DNA of 13,309 bases from a virus. The notes under the pieces are model-generated. The model had not been told where the DNA came from, ran no database searches, and worked only from the letters and a program-made list of their open reading frames with translations. Positions 3,684 through 13,083 of the stretch are shown in pieces. Each line of letters opens with the position of its first letter. The first letter of the stretch is position 1. The stretch lies in the UHGV virus genome UHGV-0315017; one strand, written 5' to 3'. The translations under genes were made by a program, and so were the position numbers.

Positions 3684-3847
3684 GTGTCCGTAAGCCTACC
3701 CATACCCGCATTATGGCGGGGCGTAACGGGGGAGCCTTTGCGCTCGCTGGTTCCTACAGTGCCAGTCTGCTAACCCTGTTACGTCTCGCCACCCCGTTTA
3801 GCAGCGTAGTAGCGAGACTCCTTAAAATTACTGTAGGAGCCTTTCAC

Positions 3848-4687: not shown

Positions 4688-4987
4688 ATGAAACTTAAAT
4701 ATTCTGGCTTAACTGCCAGTGGCAAAACTCGCACTAAATTCATGCGCGGTGATATTTACCGCGACCAGTACGGCGGCACGGTAATGATTAAGGGCGTGGA
4801 GGAACGGCGCATCACCTACCGTCGTGAAGGCTACGAATATGATTGCGTGATGCCTGTTTATCAGTTTCGGCGTGATTTTTCTCTGGTACAGGCAGCGCCC
4901 CGCAGTAAACCAACCAGCAGGGAGAAAGCACGCGCCAATATTCAGGAAATAAAAAAGATGCTTAACGTATTCAGGGGTAAAAAATGA
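4688..4987 (+). CDS. Hypothetical protein (99 aa) immediately upstream of and coupled to the primase gene
   Basis: GGAGAA SD; stop overlaps the primase start (ATGA at 4984-4987). Confidence 0.55.
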   Translation: MKLKYSGLTASGKTRTKFMRGDIYRDQYGGTVMIKGVEERRITYRREGYEYDCVMPVYQFRRDFSLVQAAPRSKPTSREKARANIQEIKKMLNVFRGKK

Positions 4988-6732
4988 AACTGGCACCGAA
5001 CGTAAAAAAACAACCACGCGGAATAAAACACAAAGACACAGAGGTAATTATTTTCGCGGGTAGTGATGCGTGGGCACATGCAAAACAGTGGCAGGAGCAG
5101 GACGGCCCCGCATCCGGCGATAATGTGCCGCCTGTGTGGCTTGGGCCAAATCAGCTTGCCGAACTTGATGCACTGAAAATTGTTCCGGATGGAAAAAAAC
5201 GCGTAAGGCTGTACCAGGCCGGAGAACTGGATTTGGTGGAGACCAAAAAGATTGGTCAGAAGCTGGCGGCGGCAGATATTCAGGACGCAAATTTTTACCA
5301 CGAAGGAATGCACGTCCAGAAGTGTGAAAACTGGCGGCGCTATCTGAATGCTGAGCGTGAAAATATTGCCGCAGGGCTTACCATGCCGGAGCAGAAAAAT
5401 ACGCAACTGGCACAAATGGCAGACAGTGAGCGCGCGCAGCTGCTTGCCGAGCGCTTTGATGGCGTTTGTGTGCATCAGGAAAGTGAAATCGTTCACGTAT
5501 GGCGCGGCGGGGTATGGTGTCCGGTCAGCACAATGGAACTTAGCCGCGAAATGGTGGCGATCTATTCAGAGCACAGGGCCACTTTCAGCAAGCGCGTAAT
5601 CAATAACGCCGTGGAAGCGTTAAAAGTTATTGCCGAACCAATGGGCGAGCCGTCCGGCGATTTGCTGCCGTTCGCCAATGGTGCGCTTGACCTGAAAACG
5701 GGGGAATTTTCCCCGCACACGCCGGAGAACTGGATCACCACGCACAACGGCATTGAGTACACGCCACCAGCACCTGGGGAGAACATCCGCGATAACGCGC
5801 CAAACTTTCATAAATGGCTTAAGCACGCAGCCGGAAAAGACCCGCGCAAGATGATGCGTATATGTGCCGCGCTGTACATGATTATGGCGAACCGGTACGA
5901 CTGGCAGATGTTTATTGAGGCCACCGGAGACGGCGGGAGCGGTAAAAGTACATTCACGCACATAGCCAGCCTTCTGGCAGGGAAACAGAACACGGTAAGC
6001 GCTGAAATGACATCGCTTGATGATGCTGGTGGACGTGCGCAGGTTGTCGGGAGTCGTCTTATCGTCCTGGCTGACCAGCCGAAATATACAGGCGAAGGAA
6101 CGGGCATCAAGAAAATCACGGGCGGTGACCCCGTGGAAATTAACCCGAAATACGAAAAGCGTTTCACGGCTGTAATCAGGGCGGTGGTGCTGGCGACCAA
6201 CAATAACCCGATGATATTCACCGAACGGGCCGGAGGTGTGGCACGTCGTCGCGTGATTTTCCGTTTCGACAATATCGTCAGTGAGGCCGAAAAAGACAGG
6301 GAGCTACCGGAAAAGATCGCGGCTGAAATCCCTGTCATTATCCGCCGATTGCTGGCGAACTTTACCGACCCTGAGAAGGCACGGGCTTTACTACTGGAAC
6401 AGCGTGACGGTGATGAAGCTCTGGCAATAAAGCAACAGACGGATCCGGTTATTGAGTTTTGCCAGTTCCTGAATTTTCTGGAGGAAGCACGCGGCCTGAT
6501 GATGGGCGGCGGTGGCGATTCAGTGAAGTACACGACCAGGAACAGCCTTTACCGCGTCTATCTGGCGTTTATGGCATACGCAGGCAGGAGCAAACCGCTA
6601 AACGTAAATGACTTTGGCAAGGCTATGAAGCCTGCCGCAAAAGTTTACGGACATGAATATATTACGCGGAAAGTTAAGGGGGTAACGCAGACTAACGCAA
6701 TAACAACAGACGAGTGCGACGCGTTTTTATAA
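4984..6732 (+). CDS. Replication initiator: primase / SF3 (D5-like) helicase, P4 alpha-like C-terminal region
   Basis: 582 aa with Walker A GDGGSGKST and downstream helicase-like motifs; size and position match the pri-rep genes of P4-like and PICI elements. Confidence 0.85.
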   Translation: MKLAPNVKKQPRGIKHKDTEVIIFAGSDAWAHAKQWQEQDGPASGDNVPPVWLGPNQLAELDALKIVPDGKKRVRLYQAGELDLVETKKIGQKLAAADIQDANFYHEGMHVQKCENWRRYLNAERENIAAGLTMPEQKNTQLAQMADSERAQLLAERFDGVCVHQESEIVHVWRGGVWCPVSTMELSREMVAIYSEHRATFSKRVINNAVEALKVIAEPMGEPSGDLLPFANGALDLKTGEFSPHTPENWITTHNGIEYTPPAPGENIRDNAPNFHKWLKHAAGKDPRKMMRICAALYMIMANRYDWQMFIEATGDGGSGKSTFTHIASLLAGKQNTVSAEMTSLDDAGGRAQVVGSRLIVLADQPKYTGEGTGIKKITGGDPVEINPKYEKRFTAVIRAVVLATNNNPMIFTERAGGVARRRVIFRFDNIVSEAEKDRELPEKIAAEIPVIIRRLLANFTDPEKARALLLEQRDGDEALAIKQQTDPVIEFCQFLNFLEEARGLMMGGGGDSVKYTTRNSLYRVYLAFMAYAGRSKPLNVNDFGKAMKPAAKVYGHEYITRKVKGVTQTNAITTDECDAFL

Positions 6733-7020: not shown

Positions 7021-7299
7021 ATGCACACTTCAGGGAAATTTAATAAATCACTCAAAAAACGCAGAGACAGAACAGAACCGAAATATCGCGCGTTAGACAT
7101 TACAGAGCACGCTTTAAAGGTGGCAATCAGAACGATAGACCGCCACGCGGGGGAAGGATACGCGAAAGCACATCCCGAACTGATAAGCGCATTCATGACC
7201 ACGACGGCGGCAAATTTTGCCACGCTGACAGAGCGGGAGATTGCCGAAGCGGAACAGGTAACAACCATCAACGTTAAAACCGGAGAGGTGGAATCATGA
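7021..7299 (+). CDS. Hypothetical protein (92 aa)
   Basis: GAGGGGG upstream of ATG; coupled to the ssb start (ATGA at 7296-7299). Confidence 0.55.
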   Translation: MHTSGKFNKSLKKRRDRTEPKYRALDITEHALKVAIRTIDRHAGEGYAKAHPELISAFMTTTAANFATLTEREIAEAEQVTTINVKTGEVES

Positions 7300-7706
7300 C
7301 AGCACAGATAGCCGCTTACGGGCGGCTAGTGGACGACCCGCAGGTAAAACAGACCAGCAAGGGCACACCGATGACGCTGGCGCGTATGGCGGTATCGTTG
7401 CCATGTAGTCAGGCGCAGGATGGGCAGGCGACGTTATGGCTATCGGTCATCGCATTTGGTAAGCAGGCCGACTTCCTGGCTAAACATCAAAAAGGCGACG
7501 TTGCCAGCGTATCCGGCACGATGCAGGTCAGCCAGTGGACCGGACAGAACGGGGAAACGCGGCAGGGTTATCAGGTTATTGCAGACAGCGTAATCAGTGC
7601 CCGTGCGGCACGTCCTGGCGGGAACAGACGCAAAACCACAGGCACACAGGGTAATCAGCCACCAGCGGGAGACGATGACCCCTACGGTGATGATATTCCG
7701 TTCTGA
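7296..7706 (+). CDS. ssb: Single-stranded DNA-binding protein (compact, 136 aa)
   Basis: OB-fold-like N-terminal region, Gly/Gln/Pro-rich linker and acidic C-terminal tail DDDPYGDDIPF matching the conserved SSB tail (...DDDIPF). Confidence 0.85.
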   Translation: MTAQIAAYGRLVDDPQVKQTSKGTPMTLARMAVSLPCSQAQDGQATLWLSVIAFGKQADFLAKHQKGDVASVSGTMQVSQWTGQNGETRQGYQVIADSVISARAARPGGNRRKTTGTQGNQPPAGDDDPYGDDIPF

Positions 7707-7858: not shown

Positions 7859-7908
7859 ATTGCGCAAAATGCAATCCTGATTATAATCAGGACTGGATGA
7901 ACATCCAG
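7859..7908 (+). promoter_or_regulatory. Candidate capsid-operon promoter (TTGCGC - 16 bp - TATAAT) embedded in an 18-bp perfect palindrome, followed by a second palindrome
   Basis: TCCTGATTATAATCAGGA (7875-7892) contains a consensus -10 hexamer; CTGGATGAACATCCAG (7893-7908) follows directly; about 35 nt upstream of the ATG at 7944. Confidence 0.5.
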
Positions 7909-7943
7909 TTATGATTTTTTAAGTCAAAGAGGAATTTCTTACT

Positions 7944-9206
7944 ATGGCTGAAGAGAAAAAAGGCGGTGTTTCGGTGTACATAAGCCCCGACATCGTGAAG
8001 GCGCTCAAGGAACGCCACCAGCAGAACGTAAAAGCAGGCATTGCGGCAGGACTTGACCCGCTGGCGATGGTTGAGCCGTCAACAGGCTGGCAGGTACGCG
8101 CCTATTTACGCGCGGCGCTGGGTATGAATCAGGTTCACGGGGGGGGAATAATGACAGTAAAAGCAATGGCACTTAACACTAACCAGCTTTTTGCGTACCT
8201 GAATCGCGAGGATATTGCGGAATTTAAATTCAGTCCGCTGTTTACCACGCTGTTTTTCCCGAACGTGGCGACATTCAGCACGCAAAACATCATGCTGGAT
8301 ACCCTGGACATTGAAGAAGTCACCATGTCGGCGTTTTGTTCGCCTATGGTGGGTAGCCAGGTTCAGCGCGATAAAGGGTACGAAACCAGCACAATCAAAC
8401 CTGGCTACATGAAGCCAAAGCACGAAATCGATCCAACGAAAACCATCATGCGCATGGCTGGAGAAGATCCGGCACAGCTTAACGACCCTACCTATCGCCG
8501 TATGCGCCTGATTACTGGCAATATGCGCCGCCAGATAAACGCCATAAAAGCGCGCGTGGAATGGCTGGCGGTAAATGCGGTAACGACCGGAAAAAACATC
8601 ATTGAGGGCGAAGGCATAGAGCGCTATGAAATCGACTGGAAGATACCGGAAAAAAACATCATAGAGCAGGCCGACGGTAAAAAATGGTCAGAGCAGGACA
8701 AAGAAATCCACGATCCAATCTATGATATCGAACTATACGCCGATCAGGCAGGTTGCCCCGCCAACGTCATGATTATGGGCGCTGAGGTATGGCGAACGTT
8801 ACGCAGCTTTAAAAAATTCCGTGAGCTGTACGATCTTTCCCGTGGTTCAGAGTCCGCCGCAGAGCTGGCATGTAAAAACCTGGGCGAAGTGGTGAGCTTT
8901 AAAGGCTATCTGGGCGATATTGCCCTTATCGTCTATTCCGGCAAATACGCCGACAGTGACGGCAGAGAAAAATATTTCCTTGAGCCTGATTTGCTTGTCC
9001 TGGGCAACACCAACAATAAAGGGCTGGTGGCCTATGGTGCGATTATGGATCAGGACGCAGTAAGAACGGGGGCAACGCAAAACATGTACTACCCGAAAAA
9101 CTGGATTGAGGACGGAGATCCGGCGATTGAGTACGTGCAGACACACAGTGCACCGCAGCCGGTACCGGCAGTTATTCGCAAATTTGTTACCGTCAAAATT
9201 GGTTAA
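7944..9206 (+). CDS. Major capsid protein, lambda gpE-like, with about 70-aa N-terminal extension
   Basis: Long blocks shared with lambda gpE as recalled: KFSPLF..LFF, PGYMKPKHE, EDPAQLNDPTYRRMR, SFKGYLGDIALIVYSGKY, LVLGNT, YPKNW..GDPA. AGAGGA SD before ATG 7944. Confidence 0.88.
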   Translation: MAEEKKGGVSVYISPDIVKALKERHQQNVKAGIAAGLDPLAMVEPSTGWQVRAYLRAALGMNQVHGGGIMTVKAMALNTNQLFAYLNREDIAEFKFSPLFTTLFFPNVATFSTQNIMLDTLDIEEVTMSAFCSPMVGSQVQRDKGYETSTIKPGYMKPKHEIDPTKTIMRMAGEDPAQLNDPTYRRMRLITGNMRRQINAIKARVEWLAVNAVTTGKNIIEGEGIERYEIDWKIPEKNIIEQADGKKWSEQDKEIHDPIYDIELYADQAGCPANVMIMGAEVWRTLRSFKKFRELYDLSRGSESAAELACKNLGEVVSFKGYLGDIALIVYSGKYADSDGREKYFLEPDLLVLGNTNNKGLVAYGAIMDQDAVRTGATQNMYYPKNWIEDGDPAIEYVQTHSAPQPVPAVIRKFVTVKIG

Positions 9207-9217
9207 CGGGGGATTCT

Positions 9218-9553
9218 ATGGACACTCCATACATTGAGTTATTTGCAGGCAGTCAGCAGGTCGCCACGACGCTGGTACATTTTGCCGCTGATGCTGGCTT
9301 TATTCAGGAATTTACCCCGCTGATGCTGGCGGACAATGGCGAGTTTAAGCCGTGGGATGGTAAGGAATCTGGCAAGGCTGTTTATCTGACCTCGTACCCT
9401 GTGGACACGTCAAAGCAGAAATCAGCACAGTGTTACAAGACGGGGATATTCAATATTGCCGCCGTTAACTGGCCTGAGAGCGTCGACACCGATGCGAAAA
9501 AATGCGCCGCCTTTGCGGGTTCCGGCGTATCCGTTCAGCCGCTGGCCCGATAA
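9218..9553 (+). CDS. Head decoration protein, lambda gpD-like
   Basis: 111 aa; TPLML, WDG, YKTGIF, WPE and KK.AAFAG blocks match lambda gpD (110 aa) as recalled; GGGGG SD. Confidence 0.85.
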   Translation: MDTPYIELFAGSQQVATTLVHFAADAGFIQEFTPLMLADNGEFKPWDGKESGKAVYLTSYPVDTSKQKSAQCYKTGIFNIAAVNWPESVDTDAKKCAAFAGSGVSVQPLAR

Positions 9554-9565
9554 GCAGGGGGAACG

Positions 9566-9979
9566 ATGGCAACGAATGAAAGCATCATGACGCTACCGCT
9601 GGCGAGTAAATTTAAAGCCGAAGCGCGGGCAATGGCTGACAGAGGTTTATCAACCTATGAGGCCGTATATCAACTAAACAAACTGGAAGAGCAGGACAAG
9701 CCGCGCGCTGATGCGATTATGGCGCTTCATGAGCATAAAGACTATCAGCCGCTGTTGCGTGCAATGGCAAACGTGCCTTGTATCGATGTTGGTACGGCTA
9801 AAAGCATCCTTAGCATGACCATAGAGCAGGAACGCCAGAAGGTTGCACCAGAGCTTACCGCAGCCTTTGAAAACTTTATGGACATGCACAGCCCGCAAGC
9901 CGTATCAGCTGGCATGGCATACGATGGCAGAAACCAGGGCGATGACGGCGACATCGATCGCATACTGAAAACCATCTGA
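9566..9979 (+). CDS. Hypothetical protein (137 aa) between the decoration gene and cos
   Basis: AGGGGGA SD; acidic C-terminus (QGDDGDIDRILKTI); no family recognised. Confidence 0.6.
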   Translation: MATNESIMTLPLASKFKAEARAMADRGLSTYEAVYQLNKLEEQDKPRADAIMALHEHKDYQPLLRAMANVPCIDVGTAKSILSMTIEQERQKVAPELTAAFENFMDMHSPQAVSAGMAYDGRNQGDDGDIDRILKTI

Positions 9980-9985
9980 GACAAG

Positions 9986-10009
9986 GCCGGAGAAATCCGG
10001 CTTTTTTTT
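9986..10009 (+). terminator. Rho-independent terminator (near-duplicate of the 7715-7736 hairpin)
   Basis: GCCGGA gaaa TCCGGC plus TTTTTTTT. Confidence 0.8.
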
Positions 10010-10010
10010 A

Positions 10011-10086
10011 CGGGTCCTTTCCGGCATATGGACCCGTTACGGGGCGGCGACCTCGCGGTTTTTCGCTATTTATGAGCTTTTTCAGG
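10011..10086 (+). other. Lambda-type cos site X (cosQ-like, cosN, I2-like); cohesive-end 12-mer at 10042-10053
   Basis: ACGGGTCCTTTCCGG...CCGTTACG|GGGCGGCGACCT|CGCGGTTTTTCGCTATTTATGA closely matches the lambda right-end/left-end junction as recalled (…CGGGTCCTTTCCGGTGATCCGACAGGTTACG | GGGCGGCGACCTCGCGGGTTTTCGCTATTTATGAAA). Confidence 0.8.
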
Positions 10087-10186: not shown

Positions 10187-10729
10187 ATGAAATCGCACCT
10201 GATGAACAAAAAAAACATGGCGAAAAGCTGCCGTGTAAGTGCGACAGCGTTCGACAAGTGGGGAGTGACTCCCGTTGAACGTAAAGGCCGTGAGGCGTTT
10301 TACGATGTTGCCAGCGTGATAGACAATAGGGTTAACAATGCAATTAGCCAGCTTACAAACGACAAAGGCGATATTGATGATGATGAACTCTTACGAGTCA
10401 GGATCAGATTACTGACAGCACAGGCGGAGGCGCAGGAACTTAAAAACGAGCGCGATCGCGGTGACGTGATTGATACTGAGTTTTGCCTGTACGCGCTTTC
10501 AAAGCTGGCGAGTCAGATTTCATCAATCATGGACAGCCTCCCGCTTACTATGCAAAGGAGCTTCCCACAGATTACCCCCGCCATGCTGGATAGGCTTAAA
10601 AGGGAAGTGGTTAAAGCCTGTAATGCCAGTGCCAGAGTTGCCGACAACCTCCCACAGATACTGGCTGATTACTTGAAAGAAACAACCGGAAACGTACCGG
10701 AAAAGTTGCTACAGAAGAAAGGCGAGTAA
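10187..10729 (+). CDS. Terminase small subunit, lambda Nu1-like
   Basis: 180 aa (Nu1 is 181); N-terminal HTH region and central block LTAQAEAQELKNERDRGDVIDTEFCLYALSKLASQISSIMDSLPLTMQRSFP align with lambda Nu1 (LTRAQADAQELKNARDSAEVVETAFCTFVLSRIAGEIASILDGLPLSVQRRFP) as recalled. Confidence 0.85.
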   Translation: MKSHLMNKKNMAKSCRVSATAFDKWGVTPVERKGREAFYDVASVIDNRVNNAISQLTNDKGDIDDDELLRVRIRLLTAQAEAQELKNERDRGDVIDTEFCLYALSKLASQISSIMDSLPLTMQRSFPQITPAMLDRLKREVVKACNASARVADNLPQILADYLKETTGNVPEKLLQKKGE

Positions 10730-10874: not shown

Positions 10875-10952
10875 CCAGAAAAATTTTCATAAACAGATAA
10901 AAACCGCGAGGTCGCCGCCCCGTAACGGGCCATAATTCCAGGAAGGACCCGA
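10875..10952 (-). other. Lambda-type cos site Y in inverted orientation; cohesive-end 12-mer at 10909-10920 (minus strand)
   Basis: Reverse complement reads CGGGTCCTTCCTGGAATTATGGCCCGTTACGGGGCGGCGACCTCGCGGTTTTTATCTGTTTATGAAAATTTTTCTGG, about 75 bp near-identical to site X and forming an inverted repeat with it. Confidence 0.8.
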
Positions 10953-11927: not shown

Positions 11928-11952
11928 ATTTTAGTTATACGTTTGGTTATAC
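11928..11952 (+). repeat. Arm-type direct repeat TTTTAGTTATACGTTTGGTTATACGG, partner of 604-628
   Basis: 24 of 25 positions identical to the left-end copy. Confidence 0.55.
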
Positions 11953-12129: not shown

Positions 12130-13083
12130 TCAGAACGTCCAGACTACACCCGCCTGAGTTGTGCTGCTTTCTTCACGGGAGAAACGACTATCGATACCGA
12201 GCGTCAGCCCCGTCAATGTTTGCTCAAAGCCAGCGCCTGCATCAGTGGTCACGTCGTTGCGGCTGTTAATTGCCGAACTCCACATCGCCGTATCGTAATT
12301 AACGCCTTTTACGCTACCAAGACGCCCACGCACGGTGTCCAGTTCTGCATCAAATACCAGCGGTTGTGCTGCCGCCATATTCAGCACATCCGTGGTTGAA
12401 GGGGTCATTTGTGCGCGATTCTCTGCGAGACTCCAGCTATGGTTGCCATTATCCAGCAAGGTATATTCATACGTACTGATATCAACAACGCTTCCGGCAT
12501 TGCCCAACGTAAATGCAGCATCACCGCCGCCCGTTGTTACCAGTGTAAGGCTATCTCCTGCTGCCGGGCTGGCACCGGTGTCCGTCACGAATATTTTGAA
12601 ATCACCTGTTGCTTTAACCTCCAGTAGTCCTCCCTTTTCTATAACGGCAAAGACGGCAATCCCATCTTTTTCAACAATTAAGCGCCCGCCTTTAATCGTG
12701 GGATCATTCGCCGCGCCATAAACCTGTAGCACTCCATTATTGATCGTAGTCTGATTTACCGCGCCACCCATTTGAACAATTTGATAACCATCATTTAATA
12801 CTGCGTATTCTGCGGTGCCATTTATTTCAACGTACTGATATCCCCCGTTAATTTCAGTATTACTACTTACACCAAATTCTTATATATGCTGTTCTCCGCC
12901 AGGATTGATTTTCGTATTATTGGCGGTCCAATAAACCAGCTGGATATCTTTTTCCAGGACAACACCATCAACTGGCTCACCATACTCAACAGTTGATGCC
13001 AATGCTATGGGCGAATATAACGCTGTAGCCACCAGAACAGATATTGCGGAACGACAAAGAGAAACAGAACCAGATTGGTGCAT
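12130..13083 (-). pseudogene. Autotransporter/adhesin-like gene interrupted by an in-frame TAA (12880-12882); possibly a yejO-type locus
   Basis: ORFs 12880-13083 (signal-peptide-like N-terminus) and 12130-12771 (Gly/Thr-rich beta-helix-like repeats ending ...VVWTF) are in the same frame, separated by a single TAA. The total length is too short for a complete autotransporter. Confidence 0.5.

Follow-up and report, generated by a model that had tools for sequence, protein, structure and literature searches.

A Nu3-like protein encoded with the capsid and decoration genes of an Escherichia coli phage-inducible chromosomal island

The scaffolding protein of phage lambda, Nu3, is a separate product of the C-terminal part of C, the protease gene (record annotation). 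Its partners are E, B, C, and Nu3 itself, and it is needed for the incorporation of the portal (PMC3224144); when the major capsid and scaffolding proteins of lambda are expressed together, native shells form, which are then decorated by gpD (PMC9295703). The subject here is a candidate relative of Nu3 in a phage satellite. The window (the whole stretch of DNA that was analysed, UHGV virus genome UHGV-0315017, 13,309 nt, to which all coordinates refer) holds an ~11.3-kb Escherichia coli phage-inducible chromosomal island (PICI). At 9566–9979 on the plus strand, this island carries a gene, running from an ATG to a TGA codon, for a protein of 137 amino acids (aa; 15.2 kDa, pI 5.0) which, judged by profile comparison, is very probably homologous to the Nu3 scaffolding domain.

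In its layout, the island follows the model EcCICFT073 (strain CFT073), in which c1499 is a capsid homolog, c1500 a decoration homolog, and c1503 is RppA (PMC6092414). The 137-aa protein is the ortholog of c1501, with which it shares 97% aa identity, an equal length (137 aa), and the same place between c1500 and the first cos site, cos1. The two islands differ in their integration site, which here is next to tRNA-Pro, and in the slot that holds RppA (c1503) in EcCICFT073 and a Nu1-like small terminase (TerS) in the window. EcCICFT073 has been described as being without capsid morphogenesis genes (PMC6092414), and in the published literature found, c1501 is not named as Nu3-like or as a scaffold and has no function assigned to it. 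The gene and the island are known; what is new is the Nu3 assignment, which is absent from the papers and annotations examined, and with it a satellite-borne, protease-free member of the Nu3 family.

Other satellites act on capsids in different ways. SaPI1 CpmB (PMC5644958, PMC12749128) is a small helical satellite protein related to the capsid-binding C-terminus of the helper scaffold, and in this it is like the 137-aa protein. However, CpmB acts on the helper capsid protein to give small T=4 capsids, and the two have no sequence similarity; moreover, capsid and decoration genes are here supplied by the island itself, and the orthologous island gave neither small capsids nor monomer-sized DNA (PMC6092414). 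There is also a likeness to SaPIbov5, with its Ccm protein, and to the capsid-forming PICIs (cf-PICIs; e.g., EcCIEDL933), in that a satellite encodes its own capsid homolog of the HK97 fold. In Ccm, the scaffold is part of the capsid homolog and the capsid shape is changed, whereas the 137-aa protein is separate. The cf-PICIs, which build their own capsids (bioRxiv 10.1101/2022.09.08.507074 and PMC8569155), also encode a large terminase, portal, protease, and head–tail adaptors, whereas the island in the window has only the capsid, decoration, scaffold-like, and small terminase genes. A capsid gene is present in 21 of 29 reference Gram-negative PICIs (PMC10111431), to which no phenotype has yet been attached.

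Homology to the Nu3 domain

The original prediction had recognised no motif in the protein. For Pfam and NCBIfam this stands, since scans of both gave no match; for PHROGs and for profile comparison it does not. In PHROGs, the protein belongs from end to end to phrog_1999 (E 3.8e-66), a family whose function is unannotated, and it also matches phrog_53, "head maturation protease", at positions 495–567 of 583 only (E 6e-9). These positions are the Nu3 part of that profile. A tblastn search of 50,697 phage records found matches in six lambdoid phages only, each at the 3′ end of the C/Nu3 gene. In PhiR12_2_star, the match covers residues 416–493 of the 501-aa C/Nu3 protein, at its extreme C-terminus, with 37% identity; this 501-aa protein is a homolog of lambda gpC (53% identity) with a longer C-terminal part. 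Pairwise BLASTP comparison with the tail of the helper-type C/Nu3 gave E-values of 2e-10 to 3e-10 and 37% identity over 83 residues. The natural helper of EcCICFT073 is a lambdoid prophage at icd in CFT073, and its own 501-aa C/Nu3 protein is 95% identical to that of PhiR12; c1501 aligns with the last 83 residues of the helper protein, again at 37% identity. The Nu3 type closest to the 137-aa protein is that of the natural helper prophage.

Profile methods gave the same relationship in both directions. An alignment by hhalign of the family profile with a profile of the Nu3 tail had a probability of 97% and an E-value of 8e-11 over 72 columns; reciprocally, residues 117–200 of lambda Nu3 match phrog_1999 at 2.7e-26, and a stand-alone phage Nu3 of 195 aa (P0041) matches it at 1e-41. 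When 1.84 billion representative proteins were searched exhaustively with HMMER, 12 matches were returned, namely, the family itself, an ortholog at 40% identity (P0040), Nu3 domains (P0041, P0042, and P0044), and P0043. The last of these (E 2.4e-4) is a low-complexity repeat protein and was judged spurious, so the Nu3 domains are the sole credible matches outside the family. In a MAFFT alignment, the whole protein aligns to the last two repeats and the tail of the Nu3 domains. The region of homology with the last repeat and the tail at the C-terminus of lambdoid C/Nu3 spans residues ~48–131.

The C-terminal part of the C/Nu3 protein of PhiR12_2_star consists of repeats of ~44 aa (IMxLxEAxGRExLAxxLAxxPGMTVExARxIL) followed by a tail (TAxFExFMxxxSPxAVxxG...D.D..ML). 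With lambda gpNu3 and lambdoid gpC (phrog_53, phrog_8399, and phrog_8940), the 137-aa protein shares the repeat IMxL...LA..PgM/I.V..A..IL and the tail TAxFExFM..SP...G...D.D...L. The number of repeats differs: there are three in the type found in the CFT073 helper and PhiR12, one in lambda, and, in the 137-aa protein, likely two (aa ~4–47 and 48–91). Natural in-frame alleles of 93 aa (P0028, P0030, and P0031), which are without residues 21–64, fit this two-repeat organisation, being compatible with a duplication though no proof of one; their junction lies at the microhomology GCAATGGC, between two RAMA(D/N) motifs. Unlike the lambdoid gpC/Nu3 proteins, the 137-aa protein has a distinct conserved N-terminus, SIMxLPLASKF, and a distinct conserved C-terminus, IDRILKTI. 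It is also satellite-borne and stands alone: it has its own Shine–Dalgarno sequence and ATG, no match to Peptidase_S49 was found in it, nor did the main open reading frames (ORFs) of the window yield an S49 protease gene, so that it neither lies in frame within the 3′ part of an S49 gene C nor shares the C-terminus of such a protease. It is for this reason a domain homolog and not a classical nested nu3 gene. In its position in a head module beside genes of the gpD and gpE types, in its repeat and tail sequences, and in being an acidic, helical, and partly disordered protein, it is as expected for a Nu3.

The physical properties point in the same direction. From an alignment extended by the Nu3 domains, AlphaFold2 (AF2) gave an all-helical model with a predicted local distance difference test score (pLDDT) of 77, and of 84–96 for aa 1–90, followed by a low-confidence tail at 111–126 and a short C-terminal helix; the shallow family alignment alone gave a pLDDT of 47 and an unusable model. 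The flexible tail contains the motif FENFMDMHSP, and the conserved C-terminal helix ends in IDRILKTI. The protein is acidic, with a pI of 5.0 compared to 4.5 for lambda Nu3, and as modelled it appears to resemble scaffolds in general, being helical and flexible-tailed; in all of this, and in being encoded beside gpD-like and gpE-like genes, it is similar to gpNu3, which the title of Medina et al. 2011 describes as intrinsically disordered. In 80alpha/SaPI1 and in P22, it is the termini of the scaffold that contact the N-arm of the capsid protein (PMC12749128).

The shell cassette and its conservation

The 137-aa ORF is a real gene. As the original prediction had it, the gene is co-oriented and tightly spaced with the capsid and decoration genes: the decoration gene ends at 9553, and the gap of 12 nt that follows holds the Shine–Dalgarno sequence GGGGGA (9555–9560, plus strand), 5 nt ahead of the ATG. 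Equally confirmed is that it ends just before a terminator and a cos site. An intrinsic terminator, with a 9-bp GC-rich stem (AAGGCCGGA/TCCGGCTTT) followed by a T-run, begins 4 nt past the stop codon and closes the capsid cassette (9983–10004, within a terminator region of 9983–10012, plus strand); downstream of this lies a cosN of the lambda type, with the cohesive end GGGCGGCGACCT at 10042–10053. Among 5426 complete E. coli genomes, 596 carry the gene, and of the 148 copies of full length that the fetched loci contain, 145 are intact. Its variable sites are distributed over the three codon positions as 27/22/59, with an excess at the third, and the mean pairwise ratio of nonsynonymous to synonymous substitution rates (dN/dS) of 41 alleles is 0.28, which indicates purifying selection; by segment, the ratio is 0.15 for aa 1–45, 0.40 for aa 46–92, and 0.21 for aa 93–137, and that of the capsid gene, for comparison, is ~0.12. 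Two scans of genome contigs, with the family and with the capsid protein as queries, confirmed no locus.

The partners in the cassette are homologs of lambda head genes. The gpE-like capsid protein (PF03864 Phage_cap_E, E 8e-50; phrog_29, 5e-108) is encoded in a 420-aa ORF at 7944–9206 on the plus strand, in which its own part begins at the ATG at 8151 and is fused to a preceding 68-aa ORF like c1498 (phrog_3255, aa 1–67 of the fusion). In relatives, the 68-aa and 351-aa genes are separate and overlapping. The fusion is due to a run of eight G (8138–8145) that shifts the frame; 67 related loci carry GGGGGTG or GGGGGGG at this place, and because the run is unique to the window, it reflects either an error in sequencing a homopolymer or a slippage mutation that arose recently. 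After a gap of 11 nt comes the gene for a 111-aa gpD-like head decoration protein (9218–9553, plus strand; PF02924 HDPD, E 1e-16; phrog_49, E 1e-26). The 68-aa ORF (7944–8147 in the window, 10463–10669 in locus L004) always accompanies the capsid gene, and its dN/dS of ~0.3 again indicates purifying selection; no match to it was obtained from Pfam or PDB, and its N-terminus, GGVSVYISPDIVKALKERH, gives the impression of the strand and helix of a ribbon–helix–helix protein.

The linkage of these genes is strict. All 80 IMG/VR loci with the 137-aa gene have the order 68-aa ORF, capsid, decoration, and 137-aa gene, as far upstream as the contig reaches; conversely, 69 of 70 loci found through the capsid gene and with enough room downstream carry the 137-aa gene. 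The exception (L121, 5400–5677) is a near-complete deletion of the gene between two copies of CGATGGCA. The slot downstream of cos varies (loci L008–L087) and contains a Nu1-like TerS, RppA, or neither, while the four-gene cassette is constant. Even around the ortholog at 40% identity, the order of genes is conserved (68 aa, a 351-aa Phage_cap_E protein, a 111-aa HDPD protein, 134 aa, 146 aa, and 94 aa), and that ortholog keeps both the N-terminal SIMxLPLASKF and the C-terminal IDRILKTI despite a divergence of 60%. In the contig that carries this ortholog (L005, from Logan ERR3372453), the capsid and decoration proteins are ~86–87% identical to those of the window and the scaffold-like protein 40%, and the synonymous sites of the scaffold-like gene are saturated. 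This observation suggests either that the scaffold-like gene evolves much faster or that it has been replaced by recombination. A fast-evolving middle between conserved, interacting ends would be expected of scaffolding proteins.

Divergence from the natural helper is similar across the cassette. Identity to the helper is 45% for the capsid protein, 43% for the decoration protein (over 75 aa of gpD), 33% for the small terminase, and 37% for the scaffold tail; in a wider comparison, the island capsid protein is 45–46% identical to gpE of the CFT073 helper prophage and PhiR12 and 43% identical to lambda gpE. From these values, the set seems to derive from a lambdoid head module of long ago whose members have diverged together, and does not look like a recent capture.

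A proposed scaffold for the island's own capsid, and rival explanations

Because the island holds homologs of the capsid, decoration, and Nu3 trio of lambda in one tight unit, the explanation we favour, with a probability of roughly 0.55, is that the 137-aa protein serves as a stand-alone scaffold of the Nu3 type for the island's own capsid protein. According to this proposal, the cassette would be transcribed as a single unit after induction of the helper, and the acidic helical protein would bind the gpE-like capsid protein of the island, most likely by its conserved C-terminal helix and tail. It would then chaperone the capsid protein as this polymerises into the shell of a procapsid, the part that gpNu3 plays for gpE in lambda. 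Since no portal, protease, large terminase, or tail is encoded by the island, its shells would form on the helper portal; the scaffold would be removed by the helper C protease or by exit, after which the gpD-like protein would stabilise the expanded shell, and the helper would supply the portal, protease, large terminase, head completion proteins, and tail. The binding partner, the scaffold activity, the dependence on the helper portal and protease, and the co-transcription of the cassette are inferred in this proposal. Of the roles offered by the original prediction, it is thus the scaffold-like one that is supported, by homology and by linkage.

Several observations weigh against this explanation. 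Direct BLASTP of the protein with lambda Nu3 gave no match, so that the link between the two is seen only with profiles; on its own, the N-terminal half agrees in register with the profile of the Nu3 repeat but scores weakly against it (hhalign P 0.002, probability 13%). Sequence searches of PDB, with the protein alone and with a profile of the family plus Nu3, found no match, and fold searches of the AF2 model in PDB and BFVD gave nothing informative and no similar solved or predicted viral structure. Such a lack is to be expected because PDB contains no Nu3 structure. The 137-aa gene lies outside any protease gene, and the order of genes in the island (E, D, Nu3-like) is the reverse of that in phages (C/Nu3, D, E). 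Finally, there is the published work on EcCICFT073: when c1499 or c1500 is deleted, transfer and interference with lambda both stay as they were (PMC6092414); its DNA, when packaged with lambda, is of phage size, and CFT073 shows no monomer-sized band (PMC6092414); and islands in which c1498–c1501 were replaced by cas9 or melA were still transduced from a phi80 delta-cos lysogen (PMC10530653, PMC10460865). The cassette is, therefore, not needed for transfer by laboratory helper phages. A deletion without a phenotype had been named beforehand as an argument against a role of the gene, and these replacements supply that argument in part, for transfer only. The insertion "c1501::tetA" does not bear on this question; it is not a knock-out, because the primer arms put it right after the stop codon and leave c1501 intact.

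The same tail that is proposed to bind the island's capsid protein might instead bind gpE, gpB, or gpC of the helper, and the protein would then be a competing or decoy scaffold that leads to altered or chimeric capsids or to a mild interference. The most Nu3-like stretch of the protein, FENFMDMHSP, resembles FEHFMANHSP in the C/Nu3 tail of the natural helper, and this stretch is lost in the ortholog at 40% identity, which may face another helper. Lambda Nu3 makes the contacts with B, C, and E that such a decoy would exploit (PMC3224144), and CpmB, which mimics the C-terminus of the 80alpha scaffold, is an earlier case of a scaffold from a satellite competing for the N-arm of the capsid protein (PMC5644958, PMC12749128). 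However, the C-terminus, IDRILKTI, differs from the VKMLMAMP of the helper, and the gene is always linked to the island's own capsid gene. Moreover, when the post-ori genes of EcCICFT073 were expressed one by one, only c1503 (RppA) blocked lambda and cut its plaques (PMC6739421), and packaging yielded DNA of phage size, with no satellite-sized band (PMC6092414). A decoy is thus rather unlikely.

Another alternative starts from the dispensability of the cassette, which serves as an "adaptable module" for cargo (PMC10530653, PMC10460865): the gene could be a passenger or relic of a captured lambdoid head module, kept as a length filler, given that cos islands need to be an exact fraction of the helper genome size (PMC10530653). 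The absence of a phenotype in the c1499 and c1500 deletions (PMC6092414) is in line with this, as are the natural deletions within the gene (the 93-aa variants and L121). It is nevertheless improbable, since a pure length filler would not keep its amino-acid sequence, whereas here dN/dS is 0.28, the variable sites fall at 27/22/59, 145 of 148 copies are intact, and synteny and both termini are conserved at 40% identity. Nor is the gene a raw captured fragment, because it has its own Shine–Dalgarno sequence and start and because the order of genes is rearranged relative to that in phages.

That the protein is a head–tail connector or a DNA-binding accessory that aids the terminase near cos is most improbable: several alleles bear the NCBI name "phage head-tail connector protein", the gene adjoins cos1, and a related Nu3 has a faint helix–hairpin–helix match (HHH_5, E 0.009, below the cut-off), but Pfam, PHROGs, and NCBIfam contain no connector family (gpW, gpFII, or other) that the protein matches, the name is probably a relic of "head-tail preconnector", as C/Nu3 was once labelled, an acidic protein (pI 5.0) is a poor fit for DNA binding, and cos1 cloned without c1501 works on a plasmid (PMC6092414).

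Three further candidates were rejected. A function in head completion, which the original prediction had also offered, has no match to a family of the gpW, gpFII, or gp6 type behind it. Interference with helper packaging, its third option, is the activity of the Rpp and Ppi proteins, which block helper plaques by binding the helper TerS; it is contradicted by published work on the ortholog, in which c1503 alone of the singly expressed post-ori genes blocked lambda (PMC6739421), and the protein has no similarity to RppA or Nu1. Redirection of capsid size (SaPI1 CpmA/CpmB, P4 Sid, SaPIbov5 Ccm) is not supported by any match in Pfam, PHROGs, or PDB, and the DNA of the orthologous island is phage-sized (PMC6092414). 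The idea of a link to packaging came from the position beside cos, and nothing was found in its support.

The island around the cassette and the place of the cassette among satellites

The ends of the island are likely marked by a 16-bp direct repeat, TTTTAGTTATACGTTT, at 603–618 and 11929–11944, which would be its att sites and give it a length of ~11.3 kb; four copies of such an island amount to ~45 kb, or one lambda headful. A tRNA-Pro(GGG) at 406–482 adjoins the integrase and the island. On the plus strand are encoded the integrase (673–1932), a D5-type primase (4984–6732), and a single-stranded DNA-binding protein (SSB, 7296–7706), and the regulatory zone of the island contains a C4 antisense RNA, the immunity RNA of the P1/P7/P4 type (3709–3796, plus strand; Rfam RF01695, 71.5 bits). 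Outside the island, an ORF with a Pertactin domain (12130–12771, minus strand; PF03212, E 2e-23) is probably a piece of a flanking autotransporter gene. The 2.9-kb stretch from the capsid to the terminase is 97.7% identical to the chromosome of Nissle 1917.

A candidate promoter can be read ahead of the cassette, at 7883–7917 on the plus strand (region 7861–7917), with a perfect −10 sequence, TATAAT, at 7883–7888 and a weak −35 sequence, TTGCGC, 16 nt upstream. The −35 matches at 3/6 positions, which is under the threshold of the scan, and an operon start at 7883 is accordingly offered as tentative. Directly after the TATAAT and ahead of the capsid genes come a hairpin and T-run (7891–7910 and beyond), so the shell cassette is flanked by such elements on both sides (7891–7910 and 9983–10004). 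A promoter followed by a terminator, as at 7861–7917, recalls late operons under antitermination, and this layout could tie expression of the cassette to the late regulator of the helper.

Beyond the terminator, cos1 (10013–10075, plus strand) has lambda-like cosQ and cosN sequences, and a second copy of cosN, cos2, lies in inverted orientation at 10909–10920 (minus strand). Between them, and outside the shell cassette, is the neighbour that would give packaging its specificity, the gene for a Nu1-like small terminase of 180 aa (10187–10729, plus strand; PF07471 Phage_Nu1, E 2e-23; phrog_57, E 3e-53); this gene is thus flanked by two inverted copies of the lambda cohesive end. The counterparts of cos1 and cos2 are functional in EcCICFT073 (PMC6092414).

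For the annotation of these islands, the Nu3 assignment corrects two database names, since NCBI calls alleles of this protein "hypothetical protein" or "phage head-tail connector protein", and it marks a coherent functional unit within the module that is used for cargo in engineered PICIs. If the protein is a scaffold of the Nu3 type, the island would have the three components that in lambda are sufficient to make and stabilise a shell (PMC9295703), and the puzzle of the capsid genes of PICIs would become a testable hypothesis. A tentative extension of this idea, itself doubtful, is that the cassette is a working "shell-only" kit with which these common E. coli PICIs build, or co-build, an icosahedral shell of their own on a stolen helper portal with the protease, large terminase, and tail of the helper. 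If so, the benefit would appear only with natural helpers or under other conditions, for example, when the helper capsid is incompatible, repressed, or targeted by a defence system, and shell-only PICIs would be an intermediate state, given that classical PICIs take the entire capsid from the helper and capsid-forming PICIs no more than the tail.

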